32,000 bases of DNA from the NCBI RefSeq assembly GCF_000014785.1, contig NC_008340.1, positions 3,000,001-3,032,000 on the forward strand, read 5' to 3'. Position numbers and translations under genes: made by a program. Under the pieces are notes generated by a model, which was given only the letters and a program-made list of their open reading frames with translations, had not been told where the DNA came from and ran no database searches. The DNA comes from Alkalilimnicola ehrlichii MLHE-1 (lineage in GTDB: Bacteria > Pseudomonadota > Gammaproteobacteria > Nitrococcales > Halorhodospiraceae). Positions 15,715-27,333 of this stretch are shown here, in pieces (the stretch's first letter is position 1; each line of letters begins with the position of its first letter).

Positions 15715-16389
15715 TCACATTAGGCCGCGCTCGGCGAAGGAAACCGGCCGGCCGTCACCCACCACGAAATGGTCCAATACCCGGATGTCCACCAGCCCCA
15801 GCGCCTCCTGCAACCGACGGGTCAGCGCCTGGTCAGCAACACTGGGCTCCGCCACCCCGGACGGGTGGTTGTGGGCCAGGATCACCGCCGCGGCGTTGTG
15901 CGCCAGCGCCCGCTGCACCACCTCGCGCGGGTAGACGCTGGCGGCGTCGATGGTGCCCTGGAACAGCTCCTCGTAGCGCACCACCCGGTGGCGGTTGTCC
16001 AGGAACAGGCAGGCGAATATCTCCCGCGACTGGTGGCGCAGCCGGGCGGTGAGATAGCGCGCCACCTGCTCGGGGCTGGTCAGGGCCTCGCCCCGCTCCA
16101 GCCCCGCGTGCAGGTGGCGGCGGGCCATCTCCAGCACGGCCTGTAGCTGGGTGAATTTCGCCGGCCCCAGCCCCAGGTGGTCGCAGAACCTGTCCAGGTC
16201 CGCCTCCAGCAGCGGCCGCAGCCCGCCGAAGGCCTCCAGCAACTCGCGCGCCAGATCCACCGCCGACAGCCCCTGCCGCCCGGTGCGTAGAAAGATCGCC
16301 AGTAGCTCGGCATCCGACAGCGCCCCCGCGCCCCGCTCCAGCAGCTTCTCCCGCGGCCGCTCGCCGGCCGGCCAATCCGTGATCGCCAT
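15715..16389 (-). CDS. radC: RadC-family JAB/MPN-domain protein (UPF0758)
   Basis: The protein opens [37 protein letters not shown] (HhH region) and contains the JAMM motif [16 protein letters not shown] 16389 is preceded by AAGGAGAGG. The track's 133-codon upstream extension runs through the palindromic repeat and is rejected. Confidence 0.92.
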
Positions 16390-16438
16390 TCCGTTACCTC
16401 TCCTTGGTTTCTGACCCGGCCGCCGTGCGCGCCCGGCG

Positions 16439-16657
16439 GCCTGTGGCGGTGGGGTCCTGGCGGGGCCGTGCCTGGGGTGGACCCGACTTTGGCGCACCGA
16501 GCAACGCAGGGAAAAATCGGGAAAAGCGCGTGCCTGTTCGAGCGAAGCGAGTTCACGCGCGCCGATTTTTCCCGAGTAGCGCAGGGCACCCCGAAGGGGT
16601 GCGCCATCGGAGGGTCCACCCCAGGCACGGCCCCGCCAGGACCCCACCGCCACAGGC
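16439..16657. repeat. Nested-hairpin intergenic element, copy 1 (219 bp)
   Basis: The outer inverted repeat is a perfect 46/46: 16439-16484 pairs with 16612-16657. Inner helices are 16490-16498/16598-16606 (9 bp), 16509-16520/16562-16573 (12 bp) and 16526-16532/16554-16560 (7 bp). The apical loop is 21 nt (16533-16553). A homologous copy lies at 27112-27333. Confidence 0.9.
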
Positions 16658-16786
16658 ACCCTAAACCCAGCGTCTCCTTGCGCCGGGCGAGGGGGCATCT
16701 TACCATTGCGCGTCTGAGCCGGCCCGGCCCCAGCGCCCGCGGCCGCCCACCCGTACACCACAGCACAACGGTTCCAACACCCAATC

Positions 16787-18565
16787 ATGCGTACCCACTA
16801 CTGCGGACACGTCAGCGAGACCGATCTCGATCAGGAAGTCACCCTTTGCGGCTGGGCCCACCGGCGGCGCGACCACGGCGGCGTCATCTTCATCGACCTG
16901 CGCGACCGCGAGGGCCTGGTGCAGGTGGTGTTTGACCCGGACCGCCCCGAGACCTTTGCCCTGGCCGAGCGGGTACGCAGCGAGTTCGTGCTGAAGGTCC
17001 GGGGCCGGGTACGGCGGCGCCCGGCGGGCACTGAGAACCCAGATCTGCCCACCGGTCAGGTGGAGGTGCTGGGCCTGGAGCTGGACCTGCTCAACCCGGC
17101 CAAGACCCCGCCCTTCCAGCTGGATGAGCACGAGCAGGCCGGCGAGGACGTGCGCCTGCGCTACCGCTACGTGGACCTGCGCCGGCCCGAGATGCTACAG
17201 CGGCTGCGCGCCCGGGCCCGAATCACCAGCAACCTGCGCCGCTTCCTGGACGAGCACGGCTTCCTGGACATCGAAACCCCCATGCTCACCCGCGCCACCC
17301 CCGAGGGCGCCCGCGACTACCTGGTGCCCAGCCGCACCCACCCGGGCAGCTTCTTCGCCCTGCCCCAGTCGCCGCAGCTGTTCAAGCAACTGCTGATGAT
17401 GGCGGGCATGGACCGCTACTACCAGATCGTGCGCTGCTTCCGGGACGAGGACCTGCGCGCCGACCGCCAGCCGGAGTTCACCCAGCTCGACATCGAGACC
17501 AGCTTCATGGACGAAGAGGGCATCATGCACCTGACCGAGCGCATGATGCGGCGGCTGTTTGCCGACGTCCTGCAGGTGGACCTGCCCGACCCCTTCCCGC
17601 GCATGGGCTACGCCGAGGCCATGGCCCGCTTCGGCTCCGACAAGCCGGACCTGCGTATCCCGCTGGAGCTGGTGGAGGTGGCCGACCTGATGGGCGGGGT
17701 CGAGTTCAAGGTCTTCGCCGGTCCGGCAGCCGATCCGCGTGGTCGCGTCGCCGCCCTGCACGTCCCCGGGGGCGCCGGCCTCACCCGCAAGCAGATCGAT
17801 GACTATACCCAATTCGTCGGCCGCTACGGCGCCAAGGGCCTGGCCTACATCAAGGTCAACGACCCGGCCCAGGGCCGCGAGGGGCTGCAGTCGCCGATCC
17901 TCAAATTCCTCACCGACGAGGCGGTGGACGGCATCCTGCGCCGCACCGAGGCCCGGGCGGGCGACCTGATCTTCTTCGGCGCCGACAAGGCCAAGGTGGT
18001 GAATGACGCCCTCGGCGCCCTGCGGGTCAAGCTGGGCCACGACCTGGCGATGGTGGAGGACGAGTGGCGCCCGCTGTGGGTGGTGGACTTCCCCATGTTC
18101 GAGTACGACGAGAAGGATGGCCGGCTGTACGCCCTGCACCACCCCTTCACCGCCCCCAACGTCGACGACCCGGCCGAGCTCGCCGACAAGGACCCGGAGC
18201 AGTTGGTCAGCCGGGCCTACGACATGGTGCTCAACGGCACCGAACTGGGCGGGGGCTCGGTGCGTATCCATCGTCAGGACATGCAGCAGGCGGTCTTCCG
18301 TCTGCTCGGCATCGACGAGGACGAGGCGCGGGCCAAGTTCGGCTTCCTGCTGGACGCGCTGGAGTACGGCGCACCGCCCCACGGCGGCATCGCCTTCGGC
18401 CTGGACCGCCTGGTGATGCTGATGACCGGCGCCAGCTCCATCCGCGAGGTCATGGCCTTCCCCAAGACCCAGACCGCCGCCTGCCTGCTCACCGACGCAC
18501 CGGCCGAGGTGGACATCGCCCAACTGCAGGAACTGGCGCTGCGGATCACCAAGCCGCAGGCCTGA
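16787..18565 (+). CDS. aspS: Aspartate--tRNA ligase
   Basis: 592 aa. The protein opens MRTHYCG and has an OB-fold N-terminus. Class II motifs include [34 protein letters not shown] and [15 protein letters not shown]. Confidence 0.97.
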
Positions 18566-27111: not shown

Positions 27112-27333
27112 TGAGTGGGCGGGTTGGCGGGTTCCGGGCGGGGGTGTTGCCGCTGGGGCGACTTATGCGCACCGAGCAACGCAGCAAAAGAGCGGAAACA
27201 AGGCGCGCCTGTCCGAGCGAAGCGAGTTCGCGCCGCCGCTCTTTTGCGAGTAGCGCAGGGGACCCCGAAGGGGTGCGCATTTGGAGCCCCAGCGGCAACA
27301 CCCCCGCCCGGAACCCGCCAACCCGCCCACTCA
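27112..27333. repeat. Nested-hairpin intergenic element, copy 2 (222 bp)
   Basis: The outer inverted repeat is a perfect 48/48: 27112-27159 pairs with 27286-27333. Inner helices are 27165-27173/27272-27280 (9 bp), 27184-27195/27236-27247 (12 bp) and 27202-27207/27229-27234 (6 bp). The apical loop is 21 nt (27208-27228). It has the same orientation and architecture as copy 1. Confidence 0.9.

Follow-up and report, generated by a model that had tools for sequence, protein, structure and literature searches.

Correia/NEMIS elements in Neisseria and ERIC/IRU elements in enterobacteria are co-transcribed as long hairpins that can be cleaved by RNase III or RNase E (general review PMC2229807). Both are intergenic palindromic units of 100-200 bp whose own terminal inverted repeats are conserved between copies, Correia elements having in addition a TA target duplication. 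REP and BIME sequences are extragenic, multi-copy and GC-rich, form single-strand hairpins with compensatory changes and occur as inverted doublets or mosaics of two repeat types, a REP being defined as an imperfect palindrome of 20-40 nt with a conserved GTAG or GTGG at the 5' foot of its stem (PMC2817692). They are mobilised by RAYT transposases, whose gene the repeats often flank. Single-strand initiation signals and G4-type origins are multi-hairpin ssDNA folds of 100-150 nt which carry C(GNA)G mini-hairpins and are recognised by proteins (PMC13037366). They sit at fixed places on phages and plasmids. An inverton is a segment bounded by inverted repeats and flipped by a site-specific recombinase encoded nearby; it has a promoter inside it and is observed in either orientation. 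Spacer inversion is also an outcome of template switching or gene conversion across quasi-palindromes, a known route to arms that stay identical while their sequence drifts.

The element described here lies in Alkalilimnicola ehrlichii MLHE-1, within a window of 32,000 nt (NC_008340.1, positions 3,000,001 to 3,032,000), the term denoting the whole stretch of DNA that was analysed and to which all coordinates refer. It is a 219-bp hairpin (copy 1, 16439-16657) in the spacer between radC and aspS, and it belongs to a family of structured repeats in which the helices covary, the fold is specific to one strand, the arms of five long-armed copies behave alike, and the core is inverted between two species. 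The repeat behaves most like REP/BIME/REPIN elements and nested-hairpin MITEs, yet it lacks what defines each of them and is a member of neither. Copy 1 is probably one of a family of structured, non-coding repeats, dispersed between genes and apparently without a name, which would be non-autonomous and fold as a single strand, with arms homogenised at the DNA level.

A palindrome in the radC-aspS spacer

The start codon of radC lies at 16389 on the minus strand, 49 nt from the start of copy 1, and that of aspS at 16787, 129 nt past its end, confirming the distances given in a preliminary description of this DNA; the two genes are divergent. RadC is 100% identical to a protein listed under the name Alkalilimnicola ehrlichii. 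The arms are fully complementary, as had been reported, and no match to the arm appeared in 100 shuffles of the window, the G+C content of which is 70%. Folded as RNA, the plus strand of copy 1 reaches -188 kcal/mol (z -14.1) and the minus strand -183.4 kcal/mol (z -13.6), the ssDNA fold reaching -108.8 kcal/mol (z -13.9). Translation bears out that open reading frames (ORFs) of both strands encode one shared 15-residue peptide, which they do because of the palindrome; the ORFs running across the elements are artefacts of this kind, and no gene explains the sequence. The earlier judgement that a terminator role is unfit also stands, because no T-tract follows the element and its genes are divergent. 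Terminator-like sites (a GC-rich hairpin with a T-run) were absent from both window copies on either strand, and a scan for consensus promoters in or near both copies found none.

The setting had been described as a divergent promoter region, which is true of copy 1 but is not a property of the element, as copy 2 lies between convergent genes, a copy in a third organism (L126) lies upstream of bioB, and the paired modules of relatives show no context preference. A tentative 9-bp extension of the outer stem (16430-16438 with 16681-16689) is complementary here but has no counterpart in a sister species, here called species B, and is most likely due to chance. Outside the element, species B shares without change a 41-nt block (16691-16731) whose minus strand reads TGGTAAGAT. 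It could represent the promoter of radC, in which case copy 1 would lie entirely in the radC leader, placing a long duplex there with consequences for processing. Copy 1 is not regarded as a dedicated regulator of radC or aspS, the locus offering no evidence of such a role. Short-read assemblies break at these sites because of the arms.

Anatomy of the conserved core

For the 127-nt core enclosed by the arms (Table 1), taken with its closing stem, an alignment of 127 cores supports the order P1, P2, YGAGCAACGCAG, P3, P4, CUGUYUGAG, P5, CGAGUUC, the 3' strands of P4 and P3, CGAGUAGCGCARGGAA, P6, and the 3' strands of P2 and P1. P2, P3, P4 and the 21-nt apical loop were all found at the positions first proposed for them. 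Their original arrangement as four coaxial helices with a 10x24 asymmetric loop and a plain loop as cap, however, needs to be redrawn. The 3' side of the asymmetric loop contains P6, and because P6 is conserved and covaries in relatives, the core is better described as a three-way junction than as four coaxial helices. The junction joins P2, P6 and an arm of P3, P4 and P5 with a CUGUYUGAG/CGAGUUC internal motif. The apical loop, for its part, contains a conserved motif with the mini-hairpin P5. The junction strings YGAGCAACGCAG and CGAGUAGCGCARGG are near-invariant across modules, and the apical strings CUGUYUGAG and CGAGUUC are at least 90% conserved in 86 modules that the search pattern had not picked out.

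Table 1. Features of the two window copies (positions in the window) and the long-armed copies compared with one another
Feature	Position or locus	Strand	Description
Copy 1 left arm	16439..16484		G-rich 5' side of the greatly lengthened closing stem P1; pairs perfectly over 46 bp with 16612-16657
Copy 1 conserved core	16485..16611	+ (sense)	covariance model R1 82.9 bits, E 5e-18, + strand only; aligns with 125 cores of other genomes
P2 5' strand	16490..16498	+	TGGCGCACC; pairs with 16598-16606; compensatory in copy 2, ATGCGCACC / GGTGCGCAT; covaries in the family (helix 2)
Junction string	16498..16509	+	CGAGCAACGCAG; 80-99% conserved in 86 pattern-unselected modules
P3 5' strand	16509..16520	+	GGGAAAAATCGG; pairs with 16562-16573; strongest covariation among the family helices (helix 4)
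P4 5' strand	16525..16531	+	GCGCGTG; pairs with 16553-16559; compensatory changes in copy 2 and species B
Apical region, 21 nt	16532..16552	+	CUGUUCGAG, then P5, then CGAGUU
Mini-hairpin P5	16541-16547	+	GC-GAA-GC; covaries (helix 8)
P4 3' strand	16553..16559	+	CACGCGC
P3 3' strand	16562..16573	+	CCGATTTTTCCC
Junction string	16573..16586	+	CGAGTAGCGCAGGG; 80-99% conserved in pattern-unselected modules
P6 side hairpin	16587..16601	+	CACCCC-GAA-GGGGTG; in the MFE fold; the equivalent in relatives covaries (helix 10)
P2 3' strand	16598..16606	+	GGTGCGCCA; first 4 bases alternatively close P6
Copy 1 right arm	16612..16657		3' half of P1; C-rich
Copy 2 left arm	27112..27159		48-bp perfect complement of 27286-27333
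Copy 2 core	27160..27285	+	R1 82.1 bits; 84% identity to copy 1 core; compensatory changes in P2, P3 and P4
Copy 2 right arm	27286..27333		48-bp perfect complement of 27112-27159
W1	A. ehrlichii, radC-aspS spacer		arms 46 bp, perfect
W2	A. ehrlichii, after argH		arms 48 bp, perfect
B1	species B, radC-aspS spacer		arms 37 bp, perfect
B2	species B, after argH		arms 36 bp, perfect
C1 (L126)	third organism, upstream of bioB		arms 34 bp, two G.T positions

Covariation and the strand that folds

Covariation was assessed on an alignment of 127 cores with 45 pairs, in which pairing holds for 86.8% of the cells; sliding the partners by 1-3 columns lowers this to 39-44%. Compensatory changes on both sides occur in 35 of the 45 pairs, and none of 500 shuffles attains the observed covariation values, a count not to be read as a probability, the aligned cores being kin to one another. 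Both junction strings are invariant in this alignment by construction, as they form the search pattern; in the 86 partner modules unselected by the pattern, junction and apical strings are kept at 80-99%. Six pairs in P3, P4b and the apical motif each show G.U in excess of A.C by about 10:1 or more (for instance 45:1 at the apical pair, 15:0 in P4b and 48:4 in P3), and over all 45 pairs the counts are 259:138. This excess of G.U in the best-aligned helices indicates that one strand, the sense strand as aligned, does the folding.

GNA triloops account for 154 of 199 P5 loops (77%), and most loops of P6 and of the tail hairpins found in relatives are likewise C(GNA)G triloops. Mini-hairpins of the C(GNA)G type are extraordinarily stable as DNA and much weaker as RNA (PMC13037366, PMC3201870), and this, taken with the lack of promoter or terminator signals and of any orientation preference, leans slightly towards a core active as ssDNA rather than RNA. 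A functional RNA would be served just as well by the strand-specific tolerance of G.U, the GA-rich internal motifs and the near-invariant junctions. The sense strands of both window cores (n = 2) lie on the C-rich strand, taken here as the leading-strand template. For these two copies, such placement runs counter to the preference expected of an IS200/IS605-like ssDNA mechanism.

A family across Beta- and Gammaproteobacteria

A scan of one genome per species for the pattern CGAGCAACGCAG-N48-78-CGAGTAGCGCAG matched at least 120 genome loci. Among the matches listed, most fall in Dechloromonas, Azonexus, Ferribacterium and Azospira, and others in Chromatiaceae, Sedimenticola, tubeworm endosymbionts and Lysobacteraceae. 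The aligned cores served to build an HMM, which recovered 222 modules in the fetched loci, spanning Rhodocyclales, Chromatiales, tubeworm symbionts and Lysobacterales, and all copies seen are intergenic. With a second copy in the window and these modules elsewhere, copy 1 is not a lone local palindrome. It is conserved at this locus in species B, and no named family could be matched to it: when the window and seven related loci were compared with Rfam 15, nothing reached the gathering score, 16380-16800 gave no match at E<=10, and a beta-type pair gave chance-level matches only. Literature searches by sequence string, organism and topic returned no description of the repeat. No copies were present in the viral contigs or the PLSDB plasmids searched, and a viral or plasmid origin was rejected on these grounds.

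What had been taken for a palindromic element is indeed real, multi-helix and multi-copy, but it is the 127-nt core that is conserved across bacteria, the 46-bp palindrome being lineage-specific and unconstrained in sequence. Outside Alkalilimnicola, the longest perfect flanking complement measures 5-9 bp and P1 is an imperfect closing stem; because this stem is only 8-10 bp in relatives, the long arms are regarded as a lineage-specific extension of P1. Modules of relatives bear a 3' tail of small hairpins and are mostly paired; the 87 adjacent pairs are all head-to-head (5'-to-5'), their gaps have a median of 102 nt, and their central spacers are poorly conserved. A pair usually consists of one type A and one type B module. 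Whole pairs (~540 nt) at separate loci of one genome are 80-90% identical and have unrelated genes as neighbours, and near-identical copies (>95%), which would be a sign of recent spread, were not seen; it is the dispersed, multi-copy distribution that suggests mobility.

Clustering of the ORFs within +/-3 kb of ~120 loci revealed no recurrent neighbour protein family or transposase. Some pairs are split, enclosing LysR and DUF3422 (L006) or HigB/antitoxin cassettes (L074), and held no transposase within the partial genome coverage inspected. No autonomous transposase partner emerged from either the clustered neighbours or the split pairs. A bias in gene context was rejected, as pairs lie in 31 tandem, 15 convergent and 12 divergent settings, against a background of 190, 85 and 84 by heuristic gene calls. 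The polarity of A+B pairs shows no significant bias relative to either transcription (11:6) or GC skew (17:27, p = 0.17).

Long-armed copies and the evolution of their arms

Model R1 finds exactly two copies in the window, both on the plus strand, which justifies the numbering of copy 1 in the preliminary description. Copy 2 (27112-27333) follows argH between convergent genes, and its arm sequence differs from that of copy 1. A protein search with an 80-aa ORF spanning copy 2, meant to locate further long-armed copies, gave no matches, and one 6-kb contig extending the genome past the window held no further copy. A metagenome scan for the window-type core found two loci, and look-ups of RadC and ArgH homologues brought the set to five long-armed copies in three genomes (Table 1). 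In species B, RadC and ArgH are 90% and 96% identical to those of the window, and B1 and B2 are assigned to one species because their two contigs overlap at 99.6% identity; relatives more distant than species B have no element at the radC-aspS or argH locus. The five elements measure 196-222 bp, are all single rather than doublets, and show no abutting direct repeat of >=2 nt that could represent a target-site duplication.

Core identity among the five copies is 83-91%, and arm identity is 52-67% in every pairwise comparison. Orthologous arms (W1-B1 58%, W2-B2 61%) are no closer than unrelated arms, which indicates that the arm sequence drifts freely and only the pairing is maintained. Wobble pairs make up 2 of 201 arm pairs, where about 9.4 are expected at the frequency of the core helices (P = 0.005), a scarcity that argues for copying and not for RNA-type selection. 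In CP184336.1, which is near-identical to the window sequence, and in SRR32701048, G16629 of the copy 1 right arm is A and the left arm is unchanged, a strain-level polymorphism of one arm only; arm mismatches thus do arise and must later be removed. The cores of the paralogues B1 and B2 are 91% identical, against 85% for the orthologues B2 and W2, which hints at sequence exchange between element copies. An origin of the arms in flanking target DNA was rejected, given that all arms are G-rich and the flanks are not, and that the arms differ at orthologous loci with similar aspS-side flanks.

At the radC-aspS spacer of species B, the element occupies the same point, with the aspS-side flank alignable up to the arm, and the core is reverse-complemented relative to the window. 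At the copy 2 locus, core orientation is the same in A. ehrlichii and species B. SRR32701048, the sole sample in which both junctions are readable, shows the window orientation only; inversion polymorphism within this sample was rejected, as both junction contigs match that orientation. Independent insertions in opposite orientations into the same spacer may also account for the apparent inversion.

Comparison with described repeats

The repeat shares with REP/BIME/REPIN elements (RAYT, tyrosine HUH-Y1) its extragenic, multi-copy and GC-rich nature and its hairpins with compensatory changes, and the mostly A+B pairs of relatives, with their tails of small REP-like hairpins, recall BIME doublets. 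In contrast to the short GTAG- or GTGG-footed hairpin of a REP, however, the core is a three-way junction of 127 nt; CGAGTAGCGCAG does contain a GTAG, which is separated from the foot of P6 by about 10 nt. Each window copy stands alone, no RAYT gene turned up in the neighbourhood of any copy, and REPs are without the variable, perfect closing stem of 34-48 bp found here. As in MITEs, the element is small (196-222 bp), non-coding, intergenic and multi-copy (two copies in 32 kb), and like Correia/NEMIS and ERIC/IRU units it is palindromic and folds into a long hairpin. It is set apart from MITEs, and from Correia and ERIC as these are described, by arms only 52-67% identical between copies and by the lack of a target duplication.

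The likeness to invertons, in which inverted repeats surround a segment found in both orientations, extends here to a difference between species, but no internal promoter or nearby invertase accompanies the element, the arms are not conserved between copies, and what the arms enclose is a conserved, folded repeat in its own right. Correction of quasi-palindromes is a process rather than an element family, and it leaves unexplained why the stem lengthened in this lineage. Compared by description, single-strand initiation signals and G4-type origins differ in that the present family is chromosomal, dispersed and absent from the viral and plasmid collections searched.

Competing explanations

The core may instead be a functional structured RNA, either cis-acting in mRNA or processed into a stable, protein-binding or catalytic molecule, with the long arms acting as a dsRNA handle for RNase III that releases the core or sets mRNA ends. 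This is rather unlikely, even though strong covariation with strand-specific tolerance of G.U, GA-rich internal motifs, near-invariant junctions with tandem GA motifs kept across beta- and gammaproteobacteria, and a very stable RNA fold of both strands all speak in its favour. All the long-armed copies point the same way as a neighbouring gene (aspS, radC in species B, argH or bioB), yet the bioB case alone is informative, because between divergent or convergent genes any orientation suits one neighbour. Set against unchanged neighbouring genes, the core has opposite orientations in the two sister species, pairs show no preference of orientation or context, and the arms are without the wobble pairs that selection at the RNA level tolerates. 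Neither an Rfam family nor a conserved promoter or terminator accompanies the core, the central spacers of pairs are poorly conserved, and the loops are GNA triloops, not the GNRA or UNCG tetraloops that are the usual loops of RNAs.

An invertible DNA switch, in which the arms serve as recombination sites and flipping of the core alters the expression of radC or aspS, would account for perfect inverted repeats bounding a short segment and for opposite core orientations at the same site in two close species. It is nonetheless improbable: the core contains no promoter-like site, gene calls over +/-10 kb include no recombinase, copy 2 is flanked by convergent genes and has one orientation in both species, the core is conserved as a single-strand fold in genomes without long arms, and the sample with both junctions readable shows a single orientation. 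A DNA structural signal for replication or chromosome biology, such as a single-strand initiation (priming) site or a cruciform protein-binding site, is scarcely probable. The unbiased pair polarity with respect to GC skew and the placement of the sense sequence of both window copies on the C-rich strand count against it. In its favour are the stable ssDNA fold, the CCGAAGG within P6 of copy 1 and the likeness, by description, of the C(GNA)G mini-hairpins to those of G4-type origins and of ssiA of RSF1010 (PMC13037366). That the palindrome arose locally by chance borders on the impossible; short complementarities are common in a window so rich in G+C, the 9-bp outer extension being one, but the folding score (z = -14), the lack of arm matches in 100 shuffles, the second window copy, the 222 related modules and the covariation all contradict it.

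A probable non-autonomous repeat with arms proposed to be homogenised

If copy 1 is, as preferred here, a dispersed and non-autonomous repeat, the functional unit would be the 127-nt core folded as a single strand (the plus strand for copy 1), presumably recognised in its folded state by a trans-acting factor. In Alkalilimnicola, the short P1 would have grown into a palindrome of 34-48 bp whose arms hold no sequence information, complementarity alone being kept. Recombination or gene conversion between the arms, or replication template switching across the quasi-palindrome, may be what keeps them complementary, and the same processes could also flip the enclosed core. Homogenisation at the DNA level predicts perfect identity, absence of wobble, rapid drift of both arms together, indels included, and an occasional flip of the core, which fits the behaviour of the arms. 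The element itself would be a selfish or neutral repeat. Transcription from either side would put a hairpin of ~-185 kcal/mol with a perfect duplex of 46 bp into the transcript, and this hairpin could be a substrate of RNase III, which is regarded as a side effect.

A bolder reading, possible if on the doubtful side, is that the core represents an undescribed class of folded element, a protein-recruiting ssDNA or RNA module or a ribozyme-like RNA, that has spread through Beta- and Gammaproteobacteria in heterotypic head-to-head pairs, and that the Alkalilimnicola form is a self-homogenising, flip-flopping cassette with arms recopied from each other. Such a cassette would represent a new way in which bacterial repeats are maintained and, possibly, move.

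Implications

Genome annotation now leaves stretches of this kind blank or puts spurious ORFs through them. If the present reading is true, a large and widespread structured repeat family, with a covarying three-way junction and at least 222 modules in the fetched sample, is missing from Rfam and from the literature searched. Its long-armed variant would provide a natural palindrome whose sequence is free while its perfection is maintained, in which homogenisation of DNA and selection at the level of structure can be tested against each other. The near-invariant junctions would, in turn, point to a trans-acting partner, be it a nuclease, a transposase or an RNA-binding protein.

Second copy and strand composition

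The second copy of the folded repeat lies in a convergent gene arrangement, starting 24 nt after the argH stop codon and ending 67 nt before the stop codon of a convergent CBS-domain gene, with no T-run terminator present there for either gene. The window (1-32000) has a G+C content of 67-71% and a GC skew on the + strand that is negative throughout (-0.04 to -0.05), and the sense strand of the core, the one taken to fold, is the C-rich strand in both window copies.

Features of the window
Feature	Position	Description
Copy 2 of the element	27112-27333	48-bp perfect arms and 126-nt core
41-nt block in the radC-aspS spacer	16691-16731	GGGGGCATCTTACCATTGCGCGTCTGAGCCGGCCCGGCCCC; 100% identical in species B

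Arm polymorphism and assembly breaks

The perfect palindrome of copy 1 is broken in the strains represented by CP184336.1 and sample SRR32701048 (L001, L002, L135) by a polymorphism in one arm, position 16629 of the right arm being G in the window and A in these strains, with a left arm that is the same as that of the window. Every one of the Logan short-read contigs L002-L004, L135 and L136 terminates within an arm, either of copy 1 or of copy 2. De Bruijn assemblies are broken by the palindromic arms, and such long-armed elements are therefore probably under-represented in short-read MAGs.

Modules, tails and cassettes in relatives

Adjacent modules, the core-type units of the family, share a strand in only 2 pairs, compared with 87 head-to-head pairs; one of the former (L093, 939-1176) has its modules in tandem (+,+), 1 nt apart. 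At a split pair (L074, 1282-3102), two genes lie between the modules, one for a HigB-like toxin and one of an antitoxin family. The centre of a pair may act as an insertion site for small cassettes. In the beta-type form found outside Alkalilimnicola (L009, L013 and other loci), the tails 3' of the cores carry an A/T-rich hairpin, TACTTTCTTTTG-GCGAAG-CAAAAGAAAGTA, followed by 1-4 serial REP-like hairpins, GCCCGC-N5-7-GCGGGAAMC. The family is a mosaic of several hairpin units.

Lineage range and promoter context

The adjacency of radC and aspS, together with the element, is confined to the lineage of A. ehrlichii and its sister, species B. In Alkalilimnicola sp. S0819 and in CAI21, a genome labelled A. 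ehrlichii whose RadC is only 75% identical (L129, L130), radC adjoins dfp/coaBC across a 115-nt spacer without the element.

Immediately upstream of a long-armed copy preceding bioB (L126) stands TTGACG-N17-TAGCAT, and this copy may lie inside the bioB 5' leader. In the radC-aspS spacer, the 41-nt block is conserved in species B, unlike the rest of the spacer, which has diverged. Its - strand contains TGGTAAGAT, which resembles an extended -10 element, and the block is a candidate radC promoter. If it is, copy 1 would lie wholly within the radC leader.
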